From: a virus
Lineage: Duplodnaviria > Caudoviricetes
Length of the DNA: 64,000 nt
Direction: 5' to 3' (one strand)
Virus record (IMG/VR): IMGVR_UViG_3300014205_000180
Coordinates: 64,001-128,000 of that record
The notes under the pieces are model-generated. The model searched no databases. It was not told the DNA's origin and was given only the letters and a program-made list of their open reading frames with translations. This document shows positions 1-59,690 of this stretch, piece by piece; the first letter of the stretch is position 1, and every line of letters starts with the position of its first letter. The translations under genes were made by a program, and so were the position numbers.

Positions 1-3000
1 CAGAAGATAATGTAGATAGTGATTGCGTAGACTCAGAAGATACAGAAGATAATGTCGATAATGACTGAGTAGACTCAGAAGAAGCAGTTGATTCAGATGA
101 TAATGTCGATAATGACTGTGTTGATGGTGAAGAAGCAGTAGATTCAGATGATAATGTCGATAACGACTGCGTAGACTCAGAAAAGGCAGTTGATTCAGAT
201 GATAATGTCGATAATGACTGTGTTGATGGTGAAGAAGCAGTAGATTCAGATGATAATGTTGATAACGACTGCGTAGACGGTGATGAATTAGTAGATTCAG
301 ATGATAATGTTGATAACGACTGCGTAGACGGTGATGAATTAGTAGATTCAGAAGATAATGTTGATAATGATTCAGTAGATGGTGATGAATTAGTCGATTC
401 AGAAGATAGTGTTGATAATGATTGCGTAGATTCAGAAGAAACAGTTGATTCAGATGATTGTGTTGATAACGACTGCGTTGATGGTGAAGAGACAGTAGAT
501 TCAGATGATAATGTTGATAACGATTGTGTAGACGGTGATGAAATCGTAGATTCAGAAGATAATGTCGATAATGACTGTGTAGATTCAGAAGAAACAGAAG
601 ATAGTGTTGATAATGATTGTGTAGACTCAGAAGAATTAGTAGATTCAGATGATTGAGTTGACAGCGAAAAATTAGTTGATTCAGAAGATAATGTCGATAG
701 TGACTGTGTAGACGGTGATGAGTTAGTTGATTCAGAAGAAAGCGTTGATAATGACTGTGTTGATAGTGATGAATTAGTTGATTCAGAAGATAATGTTGAT
801 AATGACTGTGTTGATAGTGATGAATTAGTTGATTCAGAAGATAATGTTGATAATGACTGAGTTGATAGTGATGAATTAGTTGATTCAGAAGATAATGTTG
901 ATAATGACTGAGTTGATTCAGAAGATAATGTTGATAATGACTGAGTTGATTCAGAAGATAATGTTGATAATGACTGAGTAGATTCAGAAGAATTAGTAGA
1001 TTCAGAAAATAACGTTGATAATGACTGTGTAGATTGAGATGAGATAGTTGATTCAGACGAGATAGTTGATAACGATTGCGTTGATGGTGATGAATTGGTA
1101 GATTCAGAAGATAGCGTTGATAATGATTGCGTAGACGGTGATGAAGCAGAAGATAGTGATTCAGTAGACAATGAAGAGACAGTAGACTCAGACGATAATG
1201 TCGATAATGATTGTGTAGACGGTGATGAAACAGTCGATTCAGTTGATAATGTTGATAATGACTGCGTAGATGGCGATGAAACAGTTGATTCAGAAGATAA
1301 CGTAGATTCAGATGACTGCGTTGACAATGAAAAATCTGATGGCGATGATTGTGAAGATAATGTTGATAATGACTGTGTAGACGGTGATGAATTAGTAGAT
1401 TCAGTAGATAATGTTGATAATGACTGTGTTGACGGTGATGAGTTAGTTGATTCAGAAGATAATGTTGATAATGACTGCGTAGACGGTGATGAATTAGTAG
1501 ATTCAGAAGATAATGTTGATAATGACTGTGTAGACGGTGAAGAGACAGTTGATTCAGAAGATAATGTTGACAATGACTGTGTAGATGCAGAAGATACAGA
1601 AGATTCAGAAGATAACGTTGATAATGATTGTGTAGACTCAGAAGAAGCAGTAGATTCAGAAGAAATAGTTGATTCAGAAGATAATGTTGACAATGATTGT
1701 GTAGATTCAGAAGAAACAGTTGACTCGGAAGAAGCAGTAGATTCAGAAGATAATGTCGATAATGACTGTGTAGATGGTGATGAGTTAGTTGATTCGAAAG
1801 ATAATGTTGATAATGATTGTGTCGATTCAGAAGAAACAGAAGATAATGTTGATAATGACTGCGTAGATTCAGAAGACAATGTTGATTCAGATGATTGAGT
1901 TGATAATGAAAAATCTGATGGTGAAGATTGTGAAGATAATGTTGACAATGACTGCGTAGATGGCGATGAAACAGTAGACTCAGAAGATAATGTAGACTCA
2001 GACTGTGTTGATTCAGAAGATAACGTTGATAGTGATTCAGTAGATTGCGATGAAATAGTAGATTCAGAAGATACAGTTGATAATGACTGTGTTGATAATG
2101 ACTGTGTTGATAATGACTGTGTTGATAATGACTGTGTTGATAATGACTGTGTTGATAATGATGAAACAGCAGATTCAGAAGATACAGTTGATAATGATTC
2201 AGTAGACAGCGAAGAGGCAGTAGATTCAGAAGATAACGTTGATAACGATTGTGTTGATGGTGATGAATCAGTAGACTCAGAAGATAATGTAGATTCAGAT
2301 GACTGCGTTGACAATGAAAAATCTGATGGCGATGATTGTGAAGATAATGACTGTGTTGATGGTGAAGAGACAGTCGATTCAGATGATAACGATTCGGTAG
2401 ATAGTGATGAAGCAGTAGATTCAGAAGATAATGTCGATAATGACTGCGTAGACGGTGATGAAGCAGTAGATTCAGAAGATAATGTCGATAATGACTGCGT
2501 AGACGGTGATGAGTTAGTTGATTCAGAAGATAATGTCGATAATGACTGAGTAGACTCAGAAGAAGCAGTTGATTCAGATGATAATGTCGATAATGATTGT
2601 GTTGATGGTGAGGAAGCAGTAGATTCAGATGATAATGTCGATAATGACTGTGTTGATGGTGAAGAAACAGTCGATTCAGATGATAATGTAGATAATGATT
2701 CGGTAGATAATGATGAAGCAGTAGATTCAGATGATAATGTCGATAATGACTGAGTTGATGGTGAGGAAACAGTAGATTCAGATGATAATGTCGATAATGA
2801 AAAATCAGATGGAGATGACTGCGAAGATAATGTTGATAATGATTTCGTAGATTCAGAAGAAATAGTTGATTCAGATGAAAGTGTCGATAGTGACTGTGTA
2901 GACTCAGAAGATAATGTTGATTCAGAAGATAATGTTGACAATGATTCAGTTGATTGTGATGAAATAGTTGATTCAGAAGATAATGTCGATAATGACTGTG

Positions 3001-4830
3001 TAGATGGCGACGAAATAGTTGATTCAGAAGATAGTGTCGATAGTGACTGTGTAGACTCAGAAGATAATGTAGACTCAGAAGATAATGTTGATAATGATTC
3101 AGTTGATTGCGATGAAGCGGTAGATTCGGAAGATTGTGTAGACTGTGAAGAAGCAGTAGATTCAGAAGACTGTGTTGATAATGACTGCGTAGATAACGAA
3201 GATAACGTTGATTCTGAAGATGAAGATGATGATGATTCAGTCGACTGTGATGAAATAGTAGATTCTGAAGATAATGTAGATAATGATCGCGTTGATAGTG
3301 AAGATATGGTAGATTGTGTCGAAAATGATTCACTTGACAATGATGAAGAAGTTGATTCAGAAGACTGTGTTGATAATGAAATAGTAGATTGCGATGAAAT
3401 AGTAGACTGCGATGAAATAGTTGATTGTGACGATAAGGATCTTGAAGAATCAGAAGATGACGACGATGAACTAAAAGATTGTGATGATAACGATCTTGAA
3501 GAATCAGAAGATGATGTAGAAGAGGATAATGACGACAATGATCTTGAAGAATCAGAAGATGATGTAGAAGATAACGAAGATAATGAAGATAATGAAGATA
3601 ATGAAAAATCAGACGGAGATGAATTTGAAGATAGTGATACTAAAGATATCAAAGAAAGTGACGATGATGAAGTTGAATAAGAAGAATTAGTTGATGTTGA
3701 TGAAGAAGAAGTAGACGAAGATGAAATTGAGTTTGAACTTAACGATGTTAATGAAGATTCTGTTGACCAAGAAGTAATAGATGATGATAATGATGAATTA
3801 GTAGAAGTTGAAGATGACGATAATGATTCAGATGATAAAGATAATTCTGATATAGAAGATAATGATGTTAACGAAGTTGCTGATGATGGTGTAGATGACG
3901 ATGATGTCGAAGATGATTGCGTTGATAATGAATATGATGATATTGATGATGGTGTTGAATATGACGATGATTCAGATGATAGTGTCGATAATGAAAGTGA
4001 AGAGTTAGATGATGAAAGTGAAGATAAAGATGAATTTGATAATGTTGATTCAGATGAATATGAAGATTCAGATGATGATGTCGAAGATGATTGCGTTGAT
4101 AATGAATATGATGATATTGATGATGGTGTTGAGTATGACGATGATTCAGATGATAGTGTCGATAATGAAAGTGAAGAACTTGATAATGATGAATTAGTAG
4201 AAGTTGAAGATGATAATGTCGATTCAGATGAATATGAAGAATCCGAAGATGTTGTTGAAGATGATAATGTTGATAATGAAGAATCAGAAGATATTGATGA
4301 TGACAATGATGAATTAGTAGAAGTTGATGACGATGATGATGATTCAGACGACAATGACGATAAGGATAATGAACTAAAAGAAGATATTGTTGACAATGAT
4401 GAATCAGATGATAATGATGTTTCCGAACTAAAAGTTGATAACGAGCTAATTGAAATAGATGTATCAGAAGATTGTGATTCTGAAGATAGCGATGTTGATT
4501 CTGAAGATAATGATGTTGATTCTGAAGATAATGATGTTGATTCTGTAGATAATGATGTCGATGATTCTGTAGATAATGATATAGATGATTCTGTCGATAA
4601 TGAAGATACTGATGATTCTGTCGATACTGATGATTCTGATGTAGATTTAGATGATATCGAACTAAGTGATTTAATAGTAGATTCTGAAGAATAAGATGAT
4701 GATTCAGAAGTAATTGATGTTGACTCAGTTGATAATGAACTAATAGAAGATATCGATGAACTTAATGATATAGATGAATATGAAGACATGATCATTGTAG
4801 ATGAAGAGCTAGAACTTCTATCATCGAATA
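1..4830 (-). repeat. Degenerate coding repeat array (Ser-rich)
   Basis: Recurrent gattcagaagataatgttgataatgactgtgtaga units. There is a ~105-bp direct duplication at ~3899-4002 and ~4073-4177. Confidence 0.95.
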
Positions 4831-5119
4831 TTTCATGCAATTTTTTGCACGCGTAGTCTAAATCTATATCATAATCTACTTCACTTAATACTATATAATT
4901 TCTTATAAATTTTGTATTAGATCTAACTCTTAACCTATCATATTTTCTTGGATCATCACCATCATCTGGCATTGTTATTAATTTGCAGTCTATTCCTAAA
5001 ACACTGCAAAAAAGATTAACTTCAACAGATGTATATTTATCGATTATTACTTCATTATCAGCAAGTCTTAATGTTAACGCTTTATATCTTGGAGTAGTTA
5101 TCAATACAAATTCACACAT
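1..5119 (-). CDS. Giant Ser/Thr/Glu-rich repeat (mucin-like) protein, >1706 aa, 3'-partial
   Basis: ATG at 5119 with AGGT SD-like site upstream. Reads MCEFVLITTPRYKALTLRLADNEVIIDKYTSVEVNLFCSVLGIDCKL...LHEIFDDRSSSSSS, then STQSLSTLSSES-type repeats. The same frame is still in register at base 1 (...LSS). Its absence from the ORF track fits a frame with no stop inside the window. Confidence 0.92.
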   Translation of the reverse strand, partial: MCEFVLITTPRYKALTLRLADNEVIIDKYTSVEVNLFCSVLGIDCKLITMPDDGDDPRKYDRLRVRSNTKFIRNYIVLSEVDYDIDLDYACKKLHEIFDDRSSSSSSTMIMSSYSSISLSSSISSISSLSTESTSITSESSSYSSESTIKSLSSISSKSTSESSVSTESSVSSLSTESSISLSTESSTSLSTESTSLSSESTSLSSESTSLSSESQSSDTSISISSLSTFSSETSLSSDSSLSTISSFSSLSLSSLSSESSSSSSTSTNSSLSSSISSDSSLSTLSSSTTSSDSSYSSESTLSSSTSTNSSLSSSSLSLSTLSSESSSYSTPSSISSYSLSTQSSSTSSSESSYSSESTLSNSSLSSLSSSNSSLSLSTLSSESSSYSTPSSISSYSLSTQSSSTSSSSTPSSATSLTSLSSISELSLSSESLSSSSTSTNSSLSSSITSWSTESSLTSLSSNSISSSSTSSSSTSTNSSYSTSSSSLSLISLVSLSSNSSPSDFSLSSLSSLSSLSSTSSSDSSRSLSSLSSSTSSSDSSRSLSSQSFSSSSSSSDSSRSLSSQSTISSQSTISSQSTISLSTQSSESTSSSLSSESFSTQSTISSLSTRSLSTLSSESTISSQSTESSSSSSSESTLSSLSTQSLSTQSSESTASSQSTQSSESTASSQSTESLSTLSSESTLSSESTQSLSTLSSESTISSPSTQSLSTLSSESTISSQSTESLSTLSSESTLSSESTQSLSTLSSESTISSESTKSLSTLSSQSSPSDFSLSTLSSESTVSSPSTQSLSTLSSESTASSLSTESLSTLSSESTVSSPSTQSLSTLSSESTASSPSTQSLSTLSSESTASSESTQSLSTLSSESTNSSPSTQSLSTLSSESTASSPSTQSLSTLSSESTASSLSTESLSSESTVSSPSTQSLSSQSSPSDFSLSTQSSESTLSSESTDSSPSTQSLSTLSSESTASSLSTESLSTVSSESAVSSLSTQSLSTQSLSTQSLSTQSLSTQSLSTVSSESTISSQSTESLSTLSSESTQSESTLSSESTVSSPSTQSLSTLSSQSSPSDFSLSTQSSESTLSSESTQSLSTLSSVSSESTQSLSTLSFESTNSSPSTQSLSTLSSESTASSESTVSSESTQSLSTLSSESTISSESTASSESTQSLSTLSSESSVSSASTQSLSTLSSESTVSSPSTQSLSTLSSESTNSSPSTQSLSTLSSESTNSSPSTQSLSTLSTESTNSSPSTQSLSTLSSQSSPSDFSLSTQSSESTLSSESTVSSPSTQSLSTLSTESTVSSPSTQSLSTLSSESTVSSLSTESLSSASSPSTQSLSTLSSESTNSSPSTQSLSTISSESTISSQSTQSLSTLFSESTNSSESTQSLSTLSSESTQSLSTLSSESTQSLSTLSSESTNSSLSTQSLSTLSSESTNSSLSTQSLSTLSSESTNSSLSTQSLSTLSSESTNSSPSTQSLSTLSSESTNFSLSTQSSESTNSSESTQSLSTLSSVSSESTQSLSTLSSESTISSPSTQSLSTLSSESTVSSPSTQSLSTQSSESTVSSESTQSLSTLSSESTNSSPSTESLSTLSSESTNSSPSTQSLSTLSSESTNSSPSTQSLSTLSSESTASSPSTQSLSTLSSESTAFSESTQSLSTLSSESTASSPSTQSLSTLSSESTASSESTQSLSTLSSVSSESTQSLSTLSS
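2076..2161. repeat. Perfect 15-bp tandem repeat (gttgataatgactgt, ~5.7 copies; encodes TQSLS)
   Basis: Read directly from the sequence. Confidence 0.95.
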
Positions 5120-5190
5120 ATGATTTACCTGCTATTAATTTACATAGTTTAGCACCATGCATATTATATATTTGAATATGCACATACTAA

Positions 5191-6309
5191 TCATTTTATA
5201 TAATATTCTTTATTTATGACCTTTATATATCCTTCATGATTACCTGCCCTAAGCTCCGCTGGAACTAATACATCAACCCCATTTTCTATATCATGAACAA
5301 CCTTGCTTATAGCATCATTTGCAAATTTGTCTCTTTTACTATTGGTTATTTCTATCGTTGCAAGAGACATCGGTATCCTACATTCTGGGTATCCAACATC
5401 TCTAGCTGCAATATAGGCATTTAAAGCACAAATTTGTGCCATTTGGCTATGTGGCGCATCTTCTGAACTACTTATCAAAATTCTCCTAGCAATAAATCGC
5501 ATATCTTCACCACTAAGCATCCATCGGCCAAGGAAATATAAAGCTTGATTAACATCAGAATTTTGCACAGAATTTTGCCAAGCAGAAGCAAAATCGAAAT
5601 GTTCATTACCATTTGGACTTAAATAAAGGTGTTTACATGGTATAGCAATATCAACCAATGATTCAGTTACAGATCCATCACCATCAATTAATGATTCAAT
5701 TATTGTTTCAAGGACTGTGATTAATTTTCTCGGATCACCACTACATCTATTAATCAATAATATAACAGAGTCAGGTTCAACTTTAATTGATCTACCCTTA
5801 TCTTTATAATATTTAAAAACCTTTAACATTAATTTCATCATATCTTGTTTATCTAATGGCTTAGTTTCCCATACTAATACTCTACTCAAAATTGCCGCAT
5901 TAACAGAATGAGCAGGCTTTTCTACAGTTGTTCCAACTATAGTTATTATACCTTCTTCTACTGCTGGTAATAAAATATCTTGAACATTCTTAGCGAATCT
6001 ATGAAATTCTTGTAATAATAATAAATATTTAGTTCCCATTTTAAGTCTTGCTTCAGCTATTTCTAAAATTTTTCTAATGTCAGCGACTTTTGCTTCTGTA
6101 GCGTCTAACTCTTTGAATTCATAACCAGCATCATTAGCCAATGCCCTAGTTATTGTAGTTTTTGAACATCCAGTAGGACCCCATAGAATAAAACTAGTAA
6201 GTTTTTTAGATTTAGCCATTGCCGATATTGGACCATTATCACCGATCAAATGTTTTTGGCCAACCACTTCAGAAAGTGTACTTGGCCTTAAAATATGTGC
6301 TAATGTCAT
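5191..6309 (-). CDS. rarA: RarA/MgsA family AAA+ ATPase, variant Walker motifs, short C-terminus
   Basis: LAHILRPSTLSEVVGQKHL, SFILWGPTGCSKTT, QEFHRF, QDILLPAVEEG, ARRILISSSED. Start moved to the ATG at 6309. Confidence 0.9.
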   Translation of the reverse strand: MTLAHILRPSTLSEVVGQKHLIGDNGPISAMAKSKKLTSFILWGPTGCSKTTITRALANDAGYEFKELDATEAKVADIRKILEIAEARLKMGTKYLLLLQEFHRFAKNVQDILLPAVEEGIITIVGTTVEKPAHSVNAAILSRVLVWETKPLDKQDMMKLMLKVFKYYKDKGRSIKVEPDSVILLINRCSGDPRKLITVLETIIESLIDGDGSVTESLVDIAIPCKHLYLSPNGNEHFDFASAWQNSVQNSDVNQALYFLGRWMLSGEDMRFIARRILISSSEDAPHSQMAQICALNAYIAARDVGYPECRIPMSLATIEITNSKRDKFANDAISKVVHDIENGVDVLVPAELRAGNHEGYIKVINKEYYIK

Positions 6310-6358
6310 AATTATAATATACAAAGCTCAAAATATAAAATTATAAGTAAATATTAAT

Positions 6359-7738: not shown

Positions 7739-8146
7739 GTGAGCACTAAATGGTTATATATAGGATGTAGACTATCTGAATTGCCGCCTAATTTTTTAAC
7801 TGATTCAAAAAAATTAACTAAAGATGAAATAAAACAAATATTAGAATCGATACCGATAGAAGATGGCTCAGCTTATGCAAATTCAGAAGAAGATTTAGTT
7901 AGAACATTAATAAGTAATGGTATTTTTCCAGTAAAAATAAAACCATATAGCAACCTTGATAATAAAATTTTAAAATTAAAGAAAATTAGAAATATCGCAG
8001 CAAGAAATGAACCGATGAGAAACAATGCTGAAGAAGTTAAAATATTAAATCAATATGAAAAGCCAAAAAAATCAATGTTTTCAGTTATCGTTGTATTAAC
8101 TATAATAGTAACCATAATTGCAATAGTTATAATTTTAATTAGATGA
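7739..8146 (+). CDS. C-terminally membrane-anchored hypothetical protein
   Basis: Hydrophobic C-terminal tail SVIVVLTIIVTIIAIVIILIR. Confidence 0.75.
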   Translation: MSTKWLYIGCRLSELPPNFLTDSKKLTKDEIKQILESIPIEDGSAYANSEEDLVRTLISNGIFPVKIKPYSNLDNKILKLKKIRNIAARNEPMRNNAEEVKILNQYEKPKKSMFSVIVVLTIIVTIIAIVIILIR

Positions 8147-11100
8147 ACTTGAACTTGATGAACTTGATGAGCTAGAAACAATCCTGATCTTCAAACCGAG
8201 TGTATGGGCTGCACCAGGACCAGTTTCAGCAATTGACCATCCACTATCAATAAATGTCGGAACATTCTTAGGCAAAAGTGTGCCGTCACCCATCTGTCCA
8301 TCATTGTTTCTACCCCAAGCGTAACGATCACCATTGGTTTTTATACCAACAGCATGATAGAATCCTGCTGTAATTGACGCCCAACCACTGCTAATAAACA
8401 CTGGTACATTAGAATCAGTTCCAAATCCGCTATCGCCCTTCCCTAACTGACCGAATATGTTATAACCCCAAGCATAAAGATCGCCATTTGTTTTTATGCC
8501 AAAGCTGAACTTATCACCTGCTTCAACAACAGCCCAACCACCACTAATAAATACTGGAGTGTAAGAATCACTAAAGCTTCCATCGCCTAATTGACCCTTA
8601 TCGTTAGCACCCCAAGCATAAAGATCACCATCAGAATTAACAGCTAAACTATGCCATTGTCCTCCTGCTGCTGAAATCCAAGTTCCAGGAATTTGTAATG
8701 GCACATTTGAATTATTGATCGTTCCATCGCCTAACGCTCCAAAATCATTACGACCCCAAGCAAAAAGTTCTCCATTAGCATTGATGGCTAAAACATGGTC
8801 CTCGCCTGGGGCAATAATATCCCAGTTGCCGGGAATTTGTATTGGAACACTAGAAGCAATAAATGAACCATTACCTAATTCACCAAAATCATTATTGCCC
8901 CAAGCATAAAGAACACCACCTGGCCTCAAGCCAAAGCTTGAGACATAGCTTGCAAATACTTCTATCCAGCCACCACTAATAAATGTTGGAACAGTCGGTT
9001 GATTACCCATACTAGTAGTACCATTACCATATTGGCCAAACTCATTATAACCCCAAGCGTAAAGATCTCCCTCAGAATTTATAGCTAAACTATGCCAGGA
9101 ACCAGATGCGATAGCGCTCCAATCACCAGAAATAGAAAGTGGTGTACTTGAATTAGTAGTAGTATTATCACCCAATTGGCCTTGTGTATTATTACCCCAA
9201 GAATACAGATCATAAGCTAAAAGACTTATTGGTGGTAAACTACTAGATGAATCATCTGACTGTGAAGATGTTGAGAATGAAGACTGCTGAGATAAAGAAG
9301 ATGAAGAAGATGAAGAATTAGATAATGAATCTAGCTCTCCCATAGCAAGGCAATGTCCATCGCCAGTCTTGATTGATGTCCAGCCACTGCCGACGAAAAC
9401 CGGAACCAATGATGAATCGAAGGTACTATCACCAAACGTGCCAGAACTATTATCGCCCCAAGCCCAGAGATCACCATTGATCTTAATACCAATAGAGAAC
9501 GCATCTCCGCCATCAGCAGATGACCAACCACTGCTAATAAGCAACGGAATATTTGAGTTATTAGTCGTTCCATCGCCAAGCTGACCGTACCAGTTTCCGC
9601 CCCAAGCGTAAAGATCGCCACTAGTTGTAATACCAAAGCTCTGTGGACCACAAGCAACAGCTTTGGCCCAGCCACCACTGATAAATACCGGGACGTTGGA
9701 GTCGGCGTCCACACCATTGCCAAGCTGACCATTGAATCCAGAACCCCAAGCCCAGAGGTCACCGTTCGGTTTTAGACCTAAACTGTGAGCACCACCACCA
9801 GTTGAAACAGATGCCCAACCGCCACTGATAAATACCGGGACGTTGGAGTCGGTGAAAGTTCCATCACCAAGCGATCCGGCAGCGTTTGAACCCCAAGCCC
9901 ATAGATCACCATTTGGTTTTAGACCAAGACTGTGTGCATAGCCTAGCACCAACGTTGACCAATCATAGGGACCCATATTAACCGGTGTCGGCTGATTAGT
10001 GTTAGTTCCATCACCTAACTGACCAACATTATTTTCACCCCAAACATAAAGATTACCGTCAGTCTTAACACCCATTGCGAATGTACCACCAGCGAATACC
10101 TCTACCCAACCACTACTAATAAACACCGGAATATTAGAGGAATCAAATGTTCCATTACCTAACTGACCGCCACTATTATCACCCCATGCCCAAAGATCGC
10201 CATTAGCTTTCAAACCGAGAGAAAAGCTACCGCCAGCAACATAAGTTTCAAATCTGCCTGGACTTGCCGGAACGCTGGAATCAGTATTTGTACCATCACC
10301 AAGTTGACCACCCCAATTAGAACCCCAGGCATAAAGTGGTTCATTTTGTAAAATTGACGAAAATGAAGATAATATCTCGGTAGATTGTGATGATAAAATT
10401 TCAGTGCTAATAGATAACGATGACATTATCTCAGTGCTAAGAGATGATAGCAGTTCGGTAGATAGAGATGATTCGATAGATAAAGATGATTCGGTAGATA
10501 AAGATGATTCGGTAGATAAAGATGATTCGGTAGATGATTCAGTTGACAATGATGATTCAGTAGATGATTCAGTTGACAGTGATAATGAACTAAATGAACT
10601 ACTGCTACTTGACATATTTTGGTCTAATAATGTTACTATGACTGTTGGGCTGATAGTCGTTGTACCCTTAACACCAGCAGTCGAGTAGCCACCGCCCCAT
10701 ATTCCTTCTGGTGGAGTAACCGGTTCAGTTGGCCACTCGATCCAGCATGTCGATGGTGCAGGGTTGGACGTTAACCAATCTGCAATATTCGCATGTCCTA
10801 CCCCTGTATTTGGGTTATAGTTTAAGGAAAACTCACGAGTGAACGACCCAACAACTTGTTGTGTCCTCCAAAAATGAGCATTCGCAACAATCGTATTATA
10901 ACCTTGATATTGAACTACTACGATACCAGGAGTCCATACTGCTGCGCCAGGGTAAGACGAACGCATGACAGTTGTCAAATAATCAATACTTATATCACCA
11001 TAAAGCGCTGACGAACTGCTAATTGATTCAGAAGATACAGTCGATAATGACTCAGAAGACAGTGATGAATTAATTGATTGGAAAGATAACAATGATTCAG

Positions 11101-14100
11101 TAGAGTCAGTCGATAATGATTCAGAAGATAATGTTGATAACGATTGTATAGATAGTGATGAATCAGTTGATTCAGTAGAGTCAGTCGATAATGAGTCAGT
11201 CGATAATGATTCAGAAGATAATGTTGATAACGATTGTATAGATAGTGATGAATCAGTTGATTCAGTAGAGTCAGTCGATAATGATTCAGAAGATAATGTT
11301 GATAACGACTGTGTAGATAATGATGAATCAGTTGATCCAGTAGAGTCAGTCGATAATGATTCAGTAGAGTCAGTCGATAACGATTGTGTAGATAGTGATG
11401 AATAAGTTGATTCAGAAGATAATATCGATAATGATTCGGTAGATGGTGAAGAAATAGTTAATTCAGAAGATGGTGAAGAAATAGTTAATTCAGAAGATGA
11501 TGATCCAGTAGAGTCAGTTGATGATGATGAATCTGATAATGATGATAAATCTGATAATGATGAATCTGATAACAACGAATTAGAAGATGGAGACGAAGTT
11601 AGTGACGTTATTGAAGATTCTGTTGATAAAGAAGATTCTATTGATGCAGTCGATAACATAGATTCTGATGATAAGTATTCATCTATTTTAGCTTCACCAT
11701 TTGTTTCAAGATCAATCCATGTTAATGGGTTTTGCGTTGGATAAACAACTTCGCCATTTTTCATCTCAACATCAGCCCAAACTGTACCTTCTGTTTTCCA
11801 TTTACTGGCCTCAAAAGCAAAAAATGTTCCGCCAGTTCCTAAATCAGCAGGATCTACCCATGCTGGGCCATCAGTAATTAACATTTCTACTGATTCATTA
11901 ATAGCACAGTCTATTCCATAAGTAAACGGATTTGTAAATGGTACTTCGCCACACTTAACATTAGATTGATAGTAATCAACTACTTGTTCAACTCCTTCAC
12001 CTTCTATATAAGAATAATTTCTTATTATTTGTCTAGTAGTTGTTATAATTCCTTTTCTGTAAACTCTCCCATCAATAATATAACCAGTTGGTTCTTCACC
12101 TGGGATTCTTGGATCTTTAGTTATAAATATCAGATCGAGTACATCGTTTATCATTATCCATGATAATTCATATATAATATCATAAGTATCTTTATATCTA
12201 AATGCTCCAGTCTCAGGTAATATGCAATTATCACTATCATTAATGCATAACATATTCTTTATTTCATGATTTGTAAGTCTAGAACAAAGAGACATCTTTT
12301 CTATCAATAATGCAGTAAAATCAAATTCTAGTCTATCTGGAGACTGGTCAAAATTTCCATCTCTATCAAATAAAGAAACATCTTTATCACAGCTAATATC
12401 GCCAGTTTGTTCGCAATTAGCAATTAGACAGTTACAATCAAGTCTGAATGGTTCAACATATTGATAATCTGGTTCATCATTTCTAACGAATAACATTGAT
12501 TGACCAAAGAATCTGGCAGAGGTTTGTAAGGTTCCTAGTGGAATACCTAAGCCAGATGAAATTGCTGATCTATCAATATATCCAGATTCATCAGTTGAAT
12601 CATAACGATAGTTAAAATCAACACTTTCTTCATTTGTTTCTGAAGCATATCCGCCAATAAAATCTTCTTTTGTTTCAGTGCATGCACTATTAAATATTTT
12701 ACCATATTCATCTTCATATGATTTTTTAACAATATCAGTAATAGTAAAATCATCAACTACATATGGATTAACAGTTGTGGTTTGATAAACATTATGAGTT
12801 ATTAATCTGTCATCTCCTGTCGGAATCGAATGATTAGACAGAGAATCGATTTCCTGCTGTATTCCATTACCAATATAGATCAGGTCTTCATAATCCCAAG
12901 TAATAGACTGCTCTACAAACAGGCTGTTAGATTCAACATATTCATATGCCTCAGAATAAGTGTTAAATCCTTTTTCAATAATTGTTCCAGTGTACATTTC
13001 TTCAATGTCAAAATTACTTCCATTGAAATGAATATAAACTGATTTTCCTTCGATCGTTGATAAAACAGCATTTAGCGTATTCTCATAAACACCACATTTT
13101 GAATTTTCATCCCATGGTCTTTTCTTGACTAAATCTTGACCATATGAAATATTCTCATAAGTATAATTATAGTCATTCAATAAATAGCCCATCGTCAAGA
13201 ATCTATGCGATGGGAATCCAAGATGTTCTTTTTCAATATTCAAAGATGCTGGATTTAATGCTAAAGTATTTTGAGAAGTTTCATAATCATAATATGGTCT
13301 AGCACTATAATGTAGAGTGACTTTCTTATTATCGACACATATAAATCTATCACCTAAGAATCCTACATGTTGATGATCACGATCAACTTTAAGTCTATCT
13401 TCCCAATATACGCCATATCCAAGTTTTGGTCCGCATGGAACATTTCTATAAGTTTCTTTTAATGTTGTTTCATTGACAAAAGTCAAAGAATCTTCAACTC
13501 TTCCTTTATAACAGAAATCTGGTTTAGATGGCGATTCTTCACAATATGTTTTTCTATCATCTTCATTATGATCAAAATCAACATTACTTGGCAATACTCT
13601 ATCTTGACCTTCTTTATTTAATCCACAATCTTCACCAATGATATTGCCATGTTCATCGGTTGTTCTTTGATCCTTCCAGCCCTGAAATTCTTTTTCTAAA
13701 CCTTCTAATATGATAGATTTTAAATCAAGATCAGATTTTTTGAACCCTCTATCAGTAGATTCACATTCTTCATAATCAGTTGGAATTATTGCTGGAGGTA
13801 CTTGTAGATCACCTAAATCTGTCCCAGGCTTTAATATATCAGTACCAGATAAACAGAAATCAGTTACATTATAAATCTCATAAATATTAGCTACAAACTT
13901 TATTTTTCTGAGTAAAGAATGAAAAGCTTTTAACTTAAATATGAATGATAACATGTATAACAATAGGTTATAATCTATCGGCTCATTGTTTTTATTAACT
14001 ATTTCAACATCAAACCTGCTAGACCTTGTATTAATTATGTCATCTGGAATAATTATCTTAGTGCGTTCAAAAACTACGAATGCGAATACTTTACCACCAT

Positions 14101-15556
14101 CAATGCTAAGTTCATGATCGAAGTTTAACAATAACGTATTTTCATTATTATTATATGAAATATTAATGTGATTTGCGATTATTTTCTTGCTTATTAAATA
14201 AGTTCCTTTATCAACTAAAACTTTGTTAGATCCTATTAACCCATTGCTAAATGAAGAGTTTAATTCCTCTAATGATTTTGTTGTTATTACTCCATTAAAA
14301 TCAGTTCTTACTATATCATCGTTATAATATTCAAGATCATTCGACAGATTTTTAGAAAAATCAAGGAGCAATTGATGATCAGGAGTATCAGCCTTTACTT
14401 GATAAACATAAATTGCGATATCAACTTTTCTATTTGGGACAAATGTTAAAGGAATTACACCAGCACTAAATCCTTCAGCATCATAGTTAGCTAATGATTG
14501 ATCTACTTGGACAGTTAATTCAGATTCAAGACCATCATTTACACCTAATAATCTATTACCACTCTTATTAGCCCACAGATTTATTATAGTAACGACAAAT
14601 CCGAACATTTCAAACAATTCGTTTATTACTCTTTTTGATCCCTTCAATTTCTGAAGATGAACAGCACGCTTAAGAATTTGTCTTCTTAAATTATCAGAGA
14701 CGCCTGGATAGTTCGGAAGGTCCCAACCGATTAAATATGCTAAATATGGTATAAATACTGCTGGAACAAAATCTATTTGGTTTACACCGTCGAGAAGCTT
14801 TTGTTCATCAAATATGTCTTGGAACAAATCGGCAAACGGTCTATAAAATTCTAACGTTGGATCAGTTAATTCATTGAATCCTTCATAATTAAAATAAAGT
14901 GATGGTGTTCCATGAAACATTGCATGGTGTATATCACCAGGATGATTAACATTTAATATTATGTTAGATATTCCTAAATCAACACCTATGCATCTAATAT
15001 TACCATTTACAGTTGAAATTCTTCTAAAGAATGTTGCTTCCCATACGAAATTATATAATTTCGGCTTTGGTAAGCCATTAACTGGCATTAAAATATTTGA
15101 TAAATCATAATAATAAGCGTCTTTATAATATTCTACTTTTTCAGCTACGGAATTGCCATCTAAAGTATACTCAAAATAGTCTCCAGTTACAGCTTCTGAA
15201 TAATCGATACTAGTGTATATCTCTGCACCATCGACACCAATTGTTTTTCTATAAAATTGAAAACCATCAACCGAAATTCTTCTTTCAGCAAACTGAGTTG
15301 CTGAAACATTTATTTCATATAAAGCATAATCTGGAACTCTGAGATTAGAATTAAATGGTCCAGCAACCTTTGCTTGGTCTGGAGCATCAACAATATAATA
15401 TCTTATCTTTTGAGTTTCTGAATCACCTATGGCTAAATTGTCATCAGTTAATCTATGTCTCTCGATATAAATAACTGGCATCGCATATGGCTTAAAGCCA
15501 GTACGAGCATTATTTAGCGGAAACAGCTTAAAGTATGGATTATTTGATGTTGTCAC
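8135..15556 (-). CDS. Giant baseplate-wedge/tail protein: P2 gpI-like domain, Ser-rich stalks, two RCC1-repeat blocks
   Basis: FIPYLAYLIGWD...RRQILKRAVHLQKLKGS is a Tail_P2_I-like signature. There are 7+7 LxAWGxNxxGQLGxG repeats. Probable start is GTG 15556 behind CAAATATA (track start is TTG 15595). Confidence 0.88.
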   Translation of the reverse strand: MTTSNNPYFKLFPLNNARTGFKPYAMPVIYIERHRLTDDNLAIGDSETQKIRYYIVDAPDQAKVAGPFNSNLRVPDYALYEINVSATQFAERRISVDGFQFYRKTIGVDGAEIYTSIDYSEAVTGDYFEYTLDGNSVAEKVEYYKDAYYYDLSNILMPVNGLPKPKLYNFVWEATFFRRISTVNGNIRCIGVDLGISNIILNVNHPGDIHHAMFHGTPSLYFNYEGFNELTDPTLEFYRPFADLFQDIFDEQKLLDGVNQIDFVPAVFIPYLAYLIGWDLPNYPGVSDNLRRQILKRAVHLQKLKGSKRVINELFEMFGFVVTIINLWANKSGNRLLGVNDGLESELTVQVDQSLANYDAEGFSAGVIPLTFVPNRKVDIAIYVYQVKADTPDHQLLLDFSKNLSNDLEYYNDDIVRTDFNGVITTKSLEELNSSFSNGLIGSNKVLVDKGTYLISKKIIANHINISYNNNENTLLLNFDHELSIDGGKVFAFVVFERTKIIIPDDIINTRSSRFDVEIVNKNNEPIDYNLLLYMLSFIFKLKAFHSLLRKIKFVANIYEIYNVTDFCLSGTDILKPGTDLGDLQVPPAIIPTDYEECESTDRGFKKSDLDLKSIILEGLEKEFQGWKDQRTTDEHGNIIGEDCGLNKEGQDRVLPSNVDFDHNEDDRKTYCEESPSKPDFCYKGRVEDSLTFVNETTLKETYRNVPCGPKLGYGVYWEDRLKVDRDHQHVGFLGDRFICVDNKKVTLHYSARPYYDYETSQNTLALNPASLNIEKEHLGFPSHRFLTMGYLLNDYNYTYENISYGQDLVKKRPWDENSKCGVYENTLNAVLSTIEGKSVYIHFNGSNFDIEEMYTGTIIEKGFNTYSEAYEYVESNSLFVEQSITWDYEDLIYIGNGIQQEIDSLSNHSIPTGDDRLITHNVYQTTTVNPYVVDDFTITDIVKKSYEDEYGKIFNSACTETKEDFIGGYASETNEESVDFNYRYDSTDESGYIDRSAISSGLGIPLGTLQTSARFFGQSMLFVRNDEPDYQYVEPFRLDCNCLIANCEQTGDISCDKDVSLFDRDGNFDQSPDRLEFDFTALLIEKMSLCSRLTNHEIKNMLCINDSDNCILPETGAFRYKDTYDIIYELSWIMINDVLDLIFITKDPRIPGEEPTGYIIDGRVYRKGIITTTRQIIRNYSYIEGEGVEQVVDYYQSNVKCGEVPFTNPFTYGIDCAINESVEMLITDGPAWVDPADLGTGGTFFAFEASKWKTEGTVWADVEMKNGEVVYPTQNPLTWIDLETNGEAKIDEYLSSESMLSTASIESSLSTESSITSLTSSPSSNSLLSDSSLSDLSSLSDSSSSTDSTGSSSSELTISSPSSELTISSPSTESLSILSSESTYSSLSTQSLSTDSTESLSTDSTGSTDSSLSTQSLSTLSSESLSTDSTESTDSSLSIQSLSTLSSESLSTDSLSTDSTESTDSSLSIQSLSTLSSESLSTDSTESLLSFQSINSSLSSESLSTVSSESISSSSALYGDISIDYLTTVMRSSYPGAAVWTPGIVVVQYQGYNTIVANAHFWRTQQVVGSFTREFSLNYNPNTGVGHANIADWLTSNPAPSTCWIEWPTEPVTPPEGIWGGGYSTAGVKGTTTISPTVIVTLLDQNMSSSSSSFSSLSLSTESSTESSLSTESSTESSLSTESSLSTESSLSIESSLSTELLSSLSTEIMSSLSISTEILSSQSTEILSSFSSILQNEPLYAWGSNWGGQLGDGTNTDSSVPASPGRFETYVAGGSFSLGLKANGDLWAWGDNSGGQLGNGTFDSSNIPVFISSGWVEVFAGGTFAMGVKTDGNLYVWGENNVGQLGDGTNTNQPTPVNMGPYDWSTLVLGYAHSLGLKPNGDLWAWGSNAAGSLGDGTFTDSNVPVFISGGWASVSTGGGAHSLGLKPNGDLWAWGSGFNGQLGNGVDADSNVPVFISGGWAKAVACGPQSFGITTSGDLYAWGGNWYGQLGDGTTNNSNIPLLISSGWSSADGGDAFSIGIKINGDLWAWGDNSSGTFGDSTFDSSLVPVFVGSGWTSIKTGDGHCLAMGELDSLSNSSSSSSSLSQQSSFSTSSQSDDSSSSLPPISLLAYDLYSWGNNTQGQLGDNTTTNSSTPLSISGDWSAIASGSWHSLAINSEGDLYAWGYNEFGQYGNGTTSMGNQPTVPTFISGGWIEVFASYVSSFGLRPGGVLYAWGNNDFGELGNGSFIASSVPIQIPGNWDIIAPGEDHVLAINANGELFAWGRNDFGALGDGTINNSNVPLQIPGTWISAAGGQWHSLAVNSDGDLYAWGANDKGQLGDGSFSDSYTPVFISGGWAVVEAGDKFSFGIKTNGDLYAWGYNIFGQLGKGDSGFGTDSNVPVFISSGWASITAGFYHAVGIKTNGDRYAWGRNNDGQMGDGTLLPKNVPTFIDSGWSIAETGPGAAHTLGLKIRIVSSSSSSSSSSSSN

Positions 15557-15576
15557 TACTCTATATATTTGTCGGA

Positions 15577-16047
15577 CTAAAATGAAACAGGACAATAAAA
15601 TGGACAGTTTTTAATATTAAATATCCCTCTAAAACTTACATCATTAGATGTTGAACCTATCGACTTTAACATGACACCATCTTCAGTATTAAGTGAAAAA
15701 TCAAACTTATACTCTCCATCGTATAACTCATTGACAAATACTATATTTCCAATCATTACGCCACAAATCGTTGCTGAAATTGGAGCTTTTAATCCATTTT
15801 GTTTAGCAAAAGCCATACTCCGATATAACTTTAACGATATATTCTGTTGAAAATTTATATGGCTAACAAATAATACTACTGCATAATAATCTGGAGTTAT
15901 TTCCAGTTTTGATACTGATTTCCACCACCAATTATCTGATTTACCATTTAACAGCTGTAATATGGAGCCAGATTCTGGCTTTCCAAGTATTGCGACACAA
16001 TCTTTTAGAACTCCTAACTGATTAATTTTTATCCTTGACTGATTCAT
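15577..16047 (-). CDS. Hypothetical protein
   Basis: Packed ORF overlapping its neighbours. Confidence 0.7.
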   Translation of the reverse strand: MNQSRIKINQLGVLKDCVAILGKPESGSILQLLNGKSDNWWWKSVSKLEITPDYYAVVLFVSHINFQQNISLKLYRSMAFAKQNGLKAPISATICGVMIGNIVFVNELYDGEYKFDFSLNTEDGVMLKSIGSTSNDVSFRGIFNIKNCPFYCPVSF

Positions 16048-16300
16048 ATTTTTTAGTAGCTACCCTCTGGGCATTCCTAAACGATTTTGAATTATCATGT
16101 CTACTTAATGTCTTAAACTTGAACTTTTCACTTAGTATATCTTTAACAATTTTTTCAATACAAACTCCTTTGTATTCATACCAATGCATGATATTATCAC
16201 ATTTGTCAAAATAAAAAGCAATTGATGCAGTAGTCTTATCACTATATAAAATATTAACAATGTCGTATTGTCTATCAAACGAATATTTATCAACCTTCAT
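16022..16300 (-). CDS. Hypothetical protein
   Basis: Coupled to the sigma gene; GGAGG upstream. Confidence 0.7.
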   Translation of the reverse strand: MKVDKYSFDRQYDIVNILYSDKTTASIAFYFDKCDNIMHWYEYKGVCIEKIVKDILSEKFKFKTLSRHDNSKSFRNAQRVATKKYESVKDKN

Positions 16301-17108
16301 ATAAACCTCCTAACTCATCCTTAAGACGAGTCATTGCACATGTTACAATGGCACAGACTCTTTGCCTGGTTATGCCAATATGGTCAGCAACTTGTGCTTG
16401 TGTCATCGGCATAAGTTTTTCACCATTATATTCAAAACCGTACATTTTACTGATTACTTCACGCTGTCTTGCCGGAAGCTTAAAGACTGAATCCCTAATC
16501 TTGTGACATGCACTAAGATTAAGACCAACTTCCGAAATATATTCAATACTAATAGCATTGCAAACCTGATCTGACATTTCACTAAAAGCATCAATACTAA
16601 CTATTGATGGATCTATACGATGCCCGTTAACTAATTGTTTCTTGATCTTTTGCATGCCGCAACGTCTGCTCTCTTTTGCACCCTTCTGAATTTCACCCCT
16701 GATATAAGAAAAAACACATGTTGAGAATTGAGCCTTTTTAATAGTTGTCTGCCATTTGTGATTACACGAATCACATTCATGATCAAAAGTGCGATCGCTA
16801 GACGGATCAGCAAATCTGTCACTATCCATGATTTCTGGCATTTGCATTTCGTTATCGCATTGAGGGCATGTAATAGTCTCACCAGCAATCGACGGAGGCA
16901 GGTTATCACGAGCTTTAGCCTTACCATAACCAATCCATGCATCAGATACAGCATCGTCAATAGTGTATTTGGGGCTGTTGCCACGCACAGTATTATAAAT
17001 AGAATTAATAGTCGGCCTCAGTTCCTCAAATAATACTTCATCAGAATGGACTAAATGTGGCCTTATGGCTGAACATTTCTCAGGTTTCTGATTTGACTTG
17101 TGGCTCAT
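16290..17108 (-). CDS. Sigma70-family sigma factor with zinc-ribbon insertion
   Basis: Region 2-like DDAVSDAWIGYGKA...FSTCVFSYIRGEI; region 4 LPARQREVI...TQAQVADHIGITRQRV. Confidence 0.85.
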   Translation of the reverse strand: MSHKSNQKPEKCSAIRPHLVHSDEVLFEELRPTINSIYNTVRGNSPKYTIDDAVSDAWIGYGKAKARDNLPPSIAGETITCPQCDNEMQMPEIMDSDRFADPSSDRTFDHECDSCNHKWQTTIKKAQFSTCVFSYIRGEIQKGAKESRRCGMQKIKKQLVNGHRIDPSIVSIDAFSEMSDQVCNAISIEYISEVGLNLSACHKIRDSVFKLPARQREVISKMYGFEYNGEKLMPMTQAQVADHIGITRQRVCAIVTCAMTRLKDELGGLYEG

Positions 17109-18241: not shown

Positions 18242-19627
18242 ATGATATTTTCAGAATTGGATTTAGCTATTTCAGTAGCCCATGCTGCAGATATACCACT
18301 GTTCGTATGGGGTCCTAGAGGAATTGGTAAAAGTAACGGCGTCAAGAAATATTGCAGAAGCAGGTTTCATTTCTACGACGAAAACGGTGTAGGCAGTGTT
18401 CCATTCTTTAATAGGGATATGCGTGCTGCACAAATGGAAGCTTCTGAATTAAGAGGGCTACCAAAAGAAGATGGTGATTCGTTCATCTATCTCCCTCCAA
18501 AAGATTTACCAAGAGGCACGTTTATTGATGAAATGGGCAATACTTGGGGAAGGAATTCTGACAAAAAACCAGAAGTATCGCCTATTTATACTGCGGTTAT
18601 CGAATCAGAAAAATATAAAACCGATAGTGAATTCAGAAAACTAACAGATAAAACATGGAAATTTAAAGGAAGAGTTGAATATCATAAAGGTATTTTGTTC
18701 TTAGATGAAATCAATAGAGGTGAAGATGATGTACTTCAAGCATTATTTGAATTAATTTTAGATAGAAAAACTGGCGGATACGAATTACCACTAAAAATAA
18801 TGATTGTTGGTGCTGGTAATCCATCTGGATCAAGGTATAGGACAAATACATTCGTATCTGATGCGGCATTTACTTCACGATGGTGCCATATCAGCATGGA
18901 AATTAACAATGATTATATTTCTGATTGGATGACTTATATTAAATCTACATCAATTGATAGTAATATAACTAACAAAATAGTTCAATTTTGTGCTGGAAAT
19001 AACGATCATTTAATTCAGAGCGAAGACGGTTCAGAAGAATTAATTATTGAACCAAATCCAAGATCATGGGAATTCGTCTCAAGAATAGAACAAGCAATCT
19101 ATGATAATTTAAATATCTTTAAAAGCGATGAGCAAAGAAATAATGTAAGAACAGAATTAATTCAAGGTTTAATTGGCATATCGATGACTAACGCATATAA
19201 AAATTGGGCTGCAGAATTATATCCTAATGATATTATTGAAAAAGGAGTTGATAAAACAATAGCATCAATACTAAAAACGATGAAAAGACCAGAAATGCAA
19301 GGTTTAATGTTTGGAGTGGCCAATTTAGCAGTTTCAATAAAAGAACCATCAAATAATCAAATAGAAAATGTAATATTATTCTGCAAATGGATGATAAACA
19401 ATAACAATTATAAAGATTTAGCAGTTGGATTCTGCAGAATGCTAACTAACAATGAGTTAGAAAGCAGCTTAAAGGGCGCTGCCCTAATTAATCCATCAAT
19501 TCAAAGAATATTGAATAAGCAAAATAAAGTAAGAACATGGTACAATGCATTAACAAATGATGCATCACTATCAAACGAAATACAATTAACTGCTTGGGGA
19601 ACTGAAATAAAGTTAGATAAAAAATGA
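18242..19627 (+). CDS. MoxR-like AAA+ ATPase
   Basis: GPRGIGKS, ILFLDEINR, VGAGNP, AFTSRW, NPRSWE. Confidence 0.92.
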   Translation: MIFSELDLAISVAHAADIPLFVWGPRGIGKSNGVKKYCRSRFHFYDENGVGSVPFFNRDMRAAQMEASELRGLPKEDGDSFIYLPPKDLPRGTFIDEMGNTWGRNSDKKPEVSPIYTAVIESEKYKTDSEFRKLTDKTWKFKGRVEYHKGILFLDEINRGEDDVLQALFELILDRKTGGYELPLKIMIVGAGNPSGSRYRTNTFVSDAAFTSRWCHISMEINNDYISDWMTYIKSTSIDSNITNKIVQFCAGNNDHLIQSEDGSEELIIEPNPRSWEFVSRIEQAIYDNLNIFKSDEQRNNVRTELIQGLIGISMTNAYKNWAAELYPNDIIEKGVDKTIASILKTMKRPEMQGLMFGVANLAVSIKEPSNNQIENVILFCKWMINNNNYKDLAVGFCRMLTNNELESSLKGAALINPSIQRILNKQNKVRTWYNALTNDASLSNEIQLTAWGTEIKLDKK

Positions 19628-39390: not shown

Positions 39391-40314
39391 TTATTCCTCG
39401 TGAAATCTGTCGAATTTATATTTAAACTCTTGTGCAATGCTATTATTATTTTCTATGATATTAATAAATTTAATACTAGAATCGCGACTTAGCTTTAGCC
39501 TATTTCTAACAGTAATTGATGAATCATAGCCTAAACAATTTAGTTTCGATTTTAATTTGTTAATACTGTCATTATCAAAACAATCAGTACAAAGTGCGAC
39601 ACACTTACGCATTGTGTAACCATCACCAATAAACCACCAATAAAAAGATTTTGGTGTTAAGTTAATGTCATTTGGAATAATTTTAACATTTTTATACCAT
39701 CTATTTCTATGAAATAAAAGATCATTATAAAATGATGATTTAAAATGCCAATATTTATTTTTAGTTCTCCATGAATTATCTGAAATTTTTGAACCCCATG
39801 GATTACTAAAATGAAGCTGACTGAATTCTTTACTGATATCAATTAAAGTGTTTTTAAATTTACATCCATATGTTATTCTAGCTGATACGTTCGAGTAATC
39901 CAAGTGACCATCACCTAACATTAAGCCATCTAGAACTTCTACCTGAATATTGGTTAAATTACATAATTTTTGTTGCCATATAGAAGCTTCAGATATAGAT
40001 CTAGTTTTAATATCATATTTTAAAAAATTATTTTCTATAGAAGTTACATGAACATCTAACTTATCTGCTATTTTTTGTTGTGACAAATTATCATCCCAAT
40101 ATAATTTATTTAATAATTTAACATATTCATCTTCTGATATTTTAAGTCTCTTGTATATTAATTCAGAGTTATTGATTTTATTTCTCTTTATTCCTTTTTT
40201 AATGTTTCTTATAATTCGTTGTATTGATCCCCTAGATATTCCTAAAGTTATTTGTATTTGCTTATTTGTATACCCATTAACACGCAATTCTTTAACTTTA
40301 TTCCAATCTATCAT
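39391..40314 (-). mobile_element. Free-standing LAGLIDADG homing endonuclease with N-terminal HTH
   Basis: DGLMLGDGHL and YWWFIGDGY. Confidence 0.88.
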
Positions 40315-40347
40315 CATGTATTTTTGACTGGAACAACAGGTCAGAAG

Positions 40348-56287: not shown

Positions 56288-56341
56288 ATTCTATATTTAC
56301 ACCAAAATCTGGTGTATCACAATCTAAGGTATTTAAATAAC

Positions 56342-56995: not shown

Positions 56996-57004
56996 ATATA
57001 AGTG

Positions 57005-59643: not shown

Positions 59644-59690
59644 GATTATTTCCCTACTATTTTGTAACAATTCAAACCAATCTATTAATA

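Follow-up and report, generated by a model that had tools for sequence, protein, structure and literature searches.

We describe herein a giant serine-rich stalk protein encoded by a phage, whose gene lies on the minus strand at the left edge of a 64,000-nucleotide stretch of DNA (bases 64001-128000 of IMG/VR record IMGVR_UViG_3300014205_000180, referred to as G000; the whole stretch is termed the window). The record comprises 150,988 bases, has a completeness estimate of 60%, and carries two T4-like signs, a gp23-type capsid gene and a gp19-type tail tube gene. The protein is 2,209 amino acids (aa) long. We show that its minus-strand frame is a real gene under selection at the protein level, and that the acidic open reading frames (ORFs) of the plus strand are shadows. 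As judged from sequence comparisons, the 51-nucleotide (nt) unit of the stalk is a cassette common to different genes of the lineage, and the N-terminal head represents a rare but real orphan family that is lineage-specific. The reading that we slightly favor is that of a virion-displayed anchor-plus-tether protein, in which the tether has grown huge and the tip is absent.

In the window, the frame spans minus-strand positions 2 to 5119 as 1,706 stop-free codons and runs off the left edge (listing of open-ended ORFs); positions 1-5119 (-) thus hold residues 1-1706 of the protein. When read in the whole record, it begins at an ATG at genome position 69119 and terminates at a TAA at genome positions 62490-62492, 1,510 bases beyond the edge, and machine translation of the 2,209 codons revealed no in-frame stop. 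An in-frame stop is located 4 codons before the ATG (window position 5119), which gives a maximal open frame of 2,213 aa, and a Shine-Dalgarno-like AGGT, as read from the sequence, is found at 5127-5130 (-), 7 nt upstream of the ATG. An initial annotation, made from the window alone, had proposed a >1700-aa ORF hidden from the ORF track. The gene is indeed real, but its full size is 2,209 aa, and it had been left unlisted merely because ORF lists omit frames that run off the window edge. An exact look-up in a 15-billion protein collection did not recover the 2,209-aa protein; two other proteins of these records were absent too, so that this result is uninformative on gene calling.

Residues 1-100 (window 4820-5119, -) form the N-terminal head, designated head1, which is delineated by its homologues and by an AlphaFold2 (AF2) model. 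The head gives way to an irregular, Ser-rich proximal stalk (residues ~101-611; 3287-4819, -), recognized from the translation and from Tandem Repeats Finder (TRF) rows of short or irregular period, and then, from about residue 612 past the window edge (1-3286, -), to a regular array of a 17-aa (51-nt) unit, SLSTLSSESTxSSPSTQ, with SSPSDFSLS as punctuation. The regularity of the array is evident from TRF periods of 51, 102 and 153 nt (~70% matches), from a 17-aa spacing of units in 31 of 52 intervals, and from autocorrelation peaks of both Ser and Leu at lag 17. The whole protein contains 1083 Ser (49%), 306 Thr (14%), 245 Leu (11%), 145 Glu and 103 Gln residues. The stalk, 2,090 residues long, is 66% Ser plus Thr, and has 22 Lys plus Arg, 158 Asp plus Glu, 2 Gly, and no Cys. 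Translation, composition and AF2 therefore agree with the picture first drawn from the window, that of a ~100-aa globular head followed by Lys/Arg-poor S/T/E/L/Q repeats that continue past the edge. A C-terminal domain had been anticipated beyond that edge as well; extension into the record yielded only ~18 non-repeat residues after the last repeats, and then the stop. No signal peptide, transmembrane segment or LPXTG-like motif was found in the 2,209-aa protein. Its N-terminus lacks a basic n-region and a hydrophobic h-region, the highest 19-aa Kyte-Doolittle mean (1.39) falls inside the head, and residues 4-8 are modeled by AF2 as a strand within the folded domain.

The plus-strand Asp/Val/Glu-rich frame opposite the gene is interrupted by 23 stops (17 TGA, 5 TAA and 1 TAG), whereas none occurs in the minus frame, which bears out the earlier view of the Asp/Glu-rich plus-strand ORFs as shadows. 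In the minus frame, 1,151 codons are stop-adjacent, with 1,892 single-base paths to a stop, none of which is realized, and ~155 stops would be expected from the positional base composition. Moreover, the substitutions that distinguish repeat copies follow this frame. We considered those that are private, i.e., unique against the repeated 17-mer background (n=66), and that therefore represent independent events after duplication. As had been noted of the repeat variants from the sequence alone, most of them (51/66) lie at minus-frame third codon positions. Third-position variation alone is not decisive between the frames, because the plus frame shares wobble positions with the minus frame. The consequences for the encoded peptide are more telling: 79% of the private substitutions are synonymous in the minus frame (31% at random) versus 53% in the plus frame, and they create no new stop in the minus frame, where 6.3 would be expected (P ~1e-3). 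In the plus frame, 3 new stops arose versus 2.8 expected, which is the neutral rate. Selection at the protein level, as the initial annotation had proposed, is thus upheld.

That there is no gene here at all, the array being tandem-repeat DNA that does not code for protein or a product of misassembly, or the real genes lying in the acidic plus-strand frames (possibly with TGA recoded), is close to refuted, and we give it very little credence. It is true that more than one frame often stays open in low-complexity repeats, as a second minus frame does here over 1,532 codons, and that 17 of the 23 plus-frame stops are TGA. Recoding of TGA was nonetheless ruled out for the plus-strand acidic ORFs by the 5 TAA and 1 TAG stops, and the standard code reads the rest of the window well. 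The array continues a conserved head in frame, every relative likewise has its head fused to a Ser tract, and the substitutions are concentrated on the third positions of the minus frame. As for the assembly, the longest exact internal repeat of the array is 104 nt, and so the array can be resolved by ordinary assembly. Since no k-mer of >=127 nt recurs, and since an independent contig (described below) carries an array of the 17-aa unit of at least 1,560 aa, an artefact is unlikely; the exact copy number is uncertain within a few perfect stretches.

The second minus-strand frame (window 1-3333) is rich in Leu, His, Tyr and Gln, has an open stretch of as many as 1,532 codons over the regular array, and could mislead gene callers. 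It is a shadow of the 2,209-aa frame: it has 28 stops over the whole gene and no head, and the substitutions fall off its wobble positions.

The head gave no match to Pfam, PHROG or NCBIfam, and Pfam remained empty for five family members at E values of up to 10. A tblastn search of 50,697 GenBank phages and a first IMG/VR scan with the single head1 sequence also gave no match, ESM Atlas gave no usable one, and a metagenome scan recovered just one 1.9-kb contig. A KilA-N/Bro-N identity, suggested by eye, was not supported by Pfam. Nonetheless, a phmmer scan over 1.84 billion representative proteins identified four true homologues (P0004, P0005, P0007 and P0008), along with two further repeat proteins that we regard as spurious, and a word-indexed profile search added a fifth, P0009; head1 profile matches have E values of 3e-47, 1e-46 and 7e-26. 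All members begin with Met-Cys, share invariant M1, I7, T9, L17 and C38, and have a Ser-rich tract after the head. AF2 models head1 as a mixed alpha/beta domain with moderate confidence (predicted local distance difference test score (pLDDT) 73, predicted template-modeling score (pTM) 0.60, from a 7-row alignment). For this fold, Foldseek against PDB and BFVD gave no match below E 0.3, and the best Z from VIA-align over 48,161 chains was 4.0.

The head is also conserved in its genomic position. Directly upstream of the 2,209-aa gene lies a RarA/MgsA-like AAA+ gene (5191-6324, -), identified by Pfam and PHROG matches, which is a syntenic neighbor of head1 genes: the order RarA-like gene, then head1 gene, with a gap of 29-72 nt, is found in three phages, namely in the window, at locus L009 of the related phage G001, which is collinear with G000 over ~100 kb, and at locus L011, which carries the P0009-type gene. 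The RarA-like gene of L009 is 79% identical to the window copy, whereas the head of the adjoining syntenic gene is 37% identical to head1 (E 1e-22). With an identity so much lower than that of its neighbor, head1 is fast-evolving, as is typical of host-facing proteins. What follows the head differs among the relatives. The L009 protein continues from head1 through a Ser linker, a small domain and a second Ser linker into at least 10 stretches of DUF285/BspA type (E 1e-160), which run to the contig end, and P0005, P0007 and P0009 end in a folded C-terminal part of ~200-350 aa that lacks a Pfam match. A by-eye suggestion that this part is a He_PIG-type Ig domain was not supported by Pfam. DUF285 proteins are bacterial surface proteins, one of which has been implicated in adhesion (PMC5071367). 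No DUF285 (PF03382) was found in the 2,209-aa protein, in which the head has no Pfam match and the remainder is repeat. A head1 paralogue of 317 aa, encoded at 59691-60644 (-), is likewise made up of a head1-like N-terminus (34% identity over 50 aa, profile E 7e-26) and a Ser/Thr repeat with no distal domain; it is not present in G001 and does not lie downstream of the RarA-like gene.

The stalk unit, for its part, is found behind other domains. When IMG/VR was searched for exact 32-nt matches to the repeat unit, one other record was retrieved, G002 (IMGVR_UViG_3300014205_000774; 21,231 bp), which is treated here as an independent contig and is given as from another sample. It contains an ORF of at least 1,710 aa (L018:2-5131, -) that ends at the contig end and includes an array of at least 1,560 aa. 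This array resembles that of G000 in its 17-aa unit, its SSPSDFSLS punctuation, its SSSRSLSTLSSQSTESSS/DQSSSSS sub-units towards the C-terminus and its position-specific codons, the two arrays being ~72% identical at the DNA level in many registers. The G002 array stands behind an unrelated N-terminal domain of ~150 aa, designated head2. Neighboring genes in G002 encode RecA, a DnaB-like helicase, pieces of a family A polymerase, a 5'-3' exonuclease, and an enzyme with GT2 and Glyco_transf_7C domains. The RecA of G001 is 87% identical to that of G002, and a head2 homologue (47% identity) lies beside it in G001, which places G002 in the lineage of G001 and G000. In this G001 protein (L021:1-2025, -; G001:C1:37727-39751), head2 leads into a Ser/Pro/Thr stalk of ~300 aa and then into propeller-like repeats of the RGIFGGG...IDYVTI..GNAxDFGDL type, which belong to no Pfam family. 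A 615-aa LamG-domain protein of G000 (genome 52004-53851) also has a C-terminus that, by eye, looks like RGIFGGG-type repeats.

A third setting of the unit is a protein of 2,486 aa encoded at window 8135-15595 (-), which has a Tail_P2_I-like domain, three Ser-rich linkers and two RCC1 propellers. The 17-aa unit recurs in one of its linkers (11000-11680, -), where 39 of 42 nt match copies in the 2,209-aa gene. About 1,310 residues of this protein align with its G001 orthologue at 66% identity, and the distal part differs. In all, five genes of the record contain Ser/Thr tracts, and three of these encode just a small N-terminal domain plus a stalk (513, 2,209 and 317 aa). The 513-aa protein (genome 48048-49589, +; L012:4048-5589) joins an unrelated N-terminus of ~100 aa to SLSTES-type repeats spanning ~390 aa and ends in a 30-aa tail rich in Tyr and Pro; it has no Pfam match and no counterpart in G001. 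Across relatives, the Ser-rich tethers range from ~30 to >2,000 residues. Serine is encoded nearly exclusively by TCN in all Ser/Thr tracts of the record, which points to common descent or exchange of repeat DNA; in the 2,209-aa gene, 98% of Ser codons are TCN versus 65% in the rest of the genome.

These relationships suggest a modular, late-evolving gene, found in a lineage of T4-like jumbo phages, that would encode an anchor plus a tether. The 100-aa lineage-specific head would most likely dock the protein onto the virion. The 51-nt unit would expand and contract by unequal recombination; selection keeps it in frame and as a given peptide, and different genes of the lineage have it in common as a cassette. 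In relatives, the tethers carry adhesin-like, apparently interchangeable tips, composed of DUF285/BspA-type or propeller-like repeats. The stalk of the 2,209-aa protein would form a long, flexible, acidic and highly hydrated filament, possibly O-glycosylated, and, as the tip is absent in G000, would itself be the exposed part. Display on the particle is favored because of the DUF285 and propeller-like tips and because the 17-aa unit occurs inside a protein with a tail domain.

O-glycosylation of the stalk by sugar-nucleotide and glycosyltransferase (GT) genes of the phage, which would justify the term mucin-like used in the initial annotation, is plausible by analogy. As reported by Freeman et al. 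2023, in the form in which that work is cited in PMC12619734, phage enzymes O-glycosylate the S/T-rich tails of mycobacteriophage virion proteins. The sugar genes of the window encode Gmd, a DegT aminotransferase, an LbH acetyltransferase and a GT25 enzyme, in addition to weak GT9-, GT8-, MptE- and TibC-like matches. The GT25 gene and the weak GT8-, GT9- and TibC-like genes lie 26-54 kb from the 2,209-aa gene and next to the gene for the 317-aa paralogue. A four-gene GT-like block (56312-59135, +), containing GT25 above the Pfam cut-off and weak TibC-like and GT8-like members, is convergent with that paralogue. When the whole cassette (window 56312-60644) was compared with its G001 counterpart (G001:C1:107767-110996), a half-size TibC-like gene and GT25 were found to replace the second GT8-like gene of G001, and the 317-aa stalk-only paralogue and a 202-aa gene are present in G000 and not in G001. 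The extra stalk-only paralogue thus co-varies with the GT pair, in the single case of G000 versus G001. Elsewhere in the lineage, the GT2 plus Glyco_transf_7C enzyme is conserved near the head2 gene. A PDB sequence search with this enzyme gave no match at E <=0.001, and so the term ppGalNAc-T-like rests on its Pfam domains only. A label of 'ugd' for ORFs between Ser-rich genes was dropped, as these have no Pfam or NCBIfam match.

Several points weigh against a glycosylated tether on the virion. No GT gene is adjacent to the 2,209-aa gene, the 150-kb G000 fragment lacks the GT2/7C enzyme seen elsewhere in the lineage, and phage GTs can modify DNA instead (PMC12619734). The placement on the particle is drawn indirectly, from relatives. 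Head1 has no match to a known capsid- or tail-binding fold by Foldseek or VIA-align, and the protein has no distal domain, i.e., nothing obvious to tether. The TCN bias of 98% suggests a history of amplification rather than long independent selection. Finally, the gene lies amid genes of nucleotide metabolism and replication, outside any structural block, and may be co-transcribed with the RarA-like gene across the short gap. The surroundings include genes for the RarA-like protein, a dUTPase, a class II ribonucleotide reductase and ThyA.

This setting is what recommends a product that is not part of the virion, such as a polyanionic Ser-rich polymer, intracellular or released at lysis, that would act as a decoy or sponge for host kinases, GTs or proteases, or would form a matrix, and whose expression would go along with that of the replication genes. 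The gene comes right after the RarA-like ATPase gene in three phages, with a very short gap, nucleotide-metabolism genes are all around, and the protein shows no signal peptide, transmembrane segment or LPXTG motif. T4-type phages, however, often have accessory virion genes dispersed away from their main structural blocks. Members of the head1 family terminate in DUF285/BspA-type stretches and head2 proteins in propeller-like repeats, both typical extracellular binding modules, and a protein that bears a phage-tail domain uses the stalk unit as a linker. We therefore consider a non-virion product quite unlikely.

The missing tip may also be taken to mean that the gene is a relic, i.e., a fiber gene that lost its distal binding domain and in which slippage or unequal crossing-over inflated the repeat unchecked, with a product that is functionless or nearly neutral. 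A folded C-terminal module, lacking in G000, is present in the G001 orthologue and in all of the metagenomic homologues, the near-perfect 51-nt copies and the 104-nt exact repeat indicate recent expansion, and the TCN-only Ser codons indicate amplification from few units. Decay of this kind does not explain why substitutions that postdate duplication are still filtered, with 79% synonymous and 0 stops versus 6.3 expected. In addition, G000 contains three stalk-only proteins (513, 2,209 and 317 aa) and a related contig has a giant array as well, so that the stalk-only state is recurrent and not a single accident. A derivation of the last 18 residues from a propeller blade was also rejected, as 272 of 500 shuffles scored as high in local alignment. 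A relic is, in our estimation, the less probable account, though not a negligible one.

The anchor-plus-tether reading assumes a flexible stalk. The periodicity also raises the prospect of a regular beta-solenoid or stacked-strand fiber, with one strand per 17-aa unit and two Leu residues in the core, which would give a rod of ~60 nm. The 17-residue periodicity of Ser and Leu is strict, the mean hydropathy of the stalk (0.446) is just above the order/disorder boundary for its charge (0.437), and AF2 placed a strand every 17 residues over ~170 residues of a 255-aa stalk segment. The model is too poor, however, to tell disorder from a solenoid, with a mean pLDDT of 48 and best blocks of ~60 (other models, 23-45), and AF2 tends towards solenoids for any tandem repeat. 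Units of 11, 17, 20, 23, 31 aa and other lengths would break the regularity, and a stalk of 66% Ser plus Thr offers no aromatic residues or Cys for a core. Such a rod is improbable. The 2,090-residue stalk has a contour length of several hundred nm and, as a random coil, would have a radius of ~20 nm (our own estimates from standard polymer rules); if it is on the particle, it would be among the longest flexible appendages of tailed phages known.

A bolder proposal, which we put forward tentatively and hold with distinctly less assurance than the anchor-plus-tether reading itself, is that of a mobile 51-nt tether cassette that recombines between anchor and structural genes and inflates to >2,000 residues. 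The stalk-only products would then form a polymer brush, probably glycosylated, round the particle, like the glycosylated fibril layer of giant viruses, and the number of repeats would tune its length and hence its reach, stickiness or shielding.

The serine-rich repeat proteins (SRRPs) of Gram-positive bacteria, such as Fap1, GspB, SraP and PsrP, have Ser-dominated stalks of hundreds to thousands of residues that are heavily O-glycosylated by dedicated GTs. The 2,209-aa protein shares with them a very long Ser-dominated repeat stalk in which the repeat number varies in length. It differs in that it has no accessory-Sec (SecA2/SecY2) signal peptide and no LPXTG anchor, and in that its head (residues 1-100) is followed by uninterrupted repeat, with no binding region between two repeat blocks. 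Neither gtfA/gtfB nor secA2/secY2 was found; Pfam scans of the neighbors and of most of the window gave other GT types only. Furthermore, its unit is phage-encoded, 17 aa long and contains Leu, Glu and Gln, in place of SxSx dipeptides, and its small folded domain is N-terminal. T5 pb10, T4 Hoc and fibritin combine a small anchor domain, a linker and an exposed module, a logic that is echoed by the relatives with DUF285 or propeller-like tips. On the other hand, Foldseek, VIA-align and the sequence searches gave no similarity of head1, modeled with moderate confidence, to these proteins; the length of the linker exceeds theirs by one to two orders of magnitude, and no exposed folded module is present.

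Closer in setting are the mycobacteriophages Che8, Corndog and Myrna, in which, as far as the work is described where it is cited, phage GTs modify Ser/Thr-rich tracts of the virion; G000 likewise has a Ser-rich tail-domain protein and sugar genes. The mycobacteriophage tracts, in the same description, are short C-terminal tails on capsid or tail-tube subunits with demonstrated glycosylation, whereas the G000 tract spans ~2,100 residues, lies on a dedicated protein, and is known from the gene alone. The polyserine and Thr/Pro linkers of secreted bacterial carbohydrate-active enzymes and cellulosomal proteins, as in Saccharophagus degradans (PMC2386152), are Ser-rich spacers that join folded extracellular modules and so resemble the linkers of the 2,486-aa protein and of the relatives of the 2,209-aa protein; they measure tens of residues and always lie between two folded domains, and the stalk here measures thousands.

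Full-text literature searches brought up no account of phage proteins with giant Ser-rich stalks, and phages are absent from a 2024 review of O-glycosylation in viruses. The remark that such a stalk is unusual in a phage therefore holds for the literature searched. What is worth noting beyond the known Ser-rich stalks and modular phage fibers is that one cassette is found on two different heads and in a baseplate-like protein, and that stalk-only forms recur. If the protein is on the particle, phages would join Gram-positive bacteria and giant viruses in relying on Ser-rich, possibly sugar-coated stalks for reach or shielding. The sharing of one repeat cassette by two heads and a baseplate-like protein provides a concrete, testable mechanism for rapid change of fiber length and tip. 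Stalks of this kind are systematically overlooked by gene callers and by tryptic proteomics, the latter because there are just 22 Lys or Arg in 2,090 residues.

As for the remainder of the record, a convergent gene of 322 aa abuts the stop of the 2,209-aa gene on the far side from the RarA-like gene. The T4 late-promoter motif TATAAATA was found upstream of 3 of the 177 genes in the record, the 2,209-aa gene not being among these; because of this low count, late transcription probably does not follow the T4 rule. A phage sigma factor is encoded at 16290-17108 (-), with a clear match to region 4 only (E 1.5e-9). ARAGORN detected no tRNA-Ser in the record. A conserved gene pair at window 18242-20835 (+), 72-73% identical in G001, consists of an AAA_5 (MoxR-like) ATPase gene and, after it, a DUF2201 metallopeptidase/VWA-like gene, and three LAGLIDADG homing-endonuclease genes are found inside 8 kb (39391-40317, 43134-44084 and 46336-47325, -). 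Finally, an 891-aa protein encoded at 35400-38075 (-), amid sugar-pathway and structural genes, contains a type I dockerin (E 7.5e-8), which may hint at a cellulosome-bearing or cohesin-displaying host.

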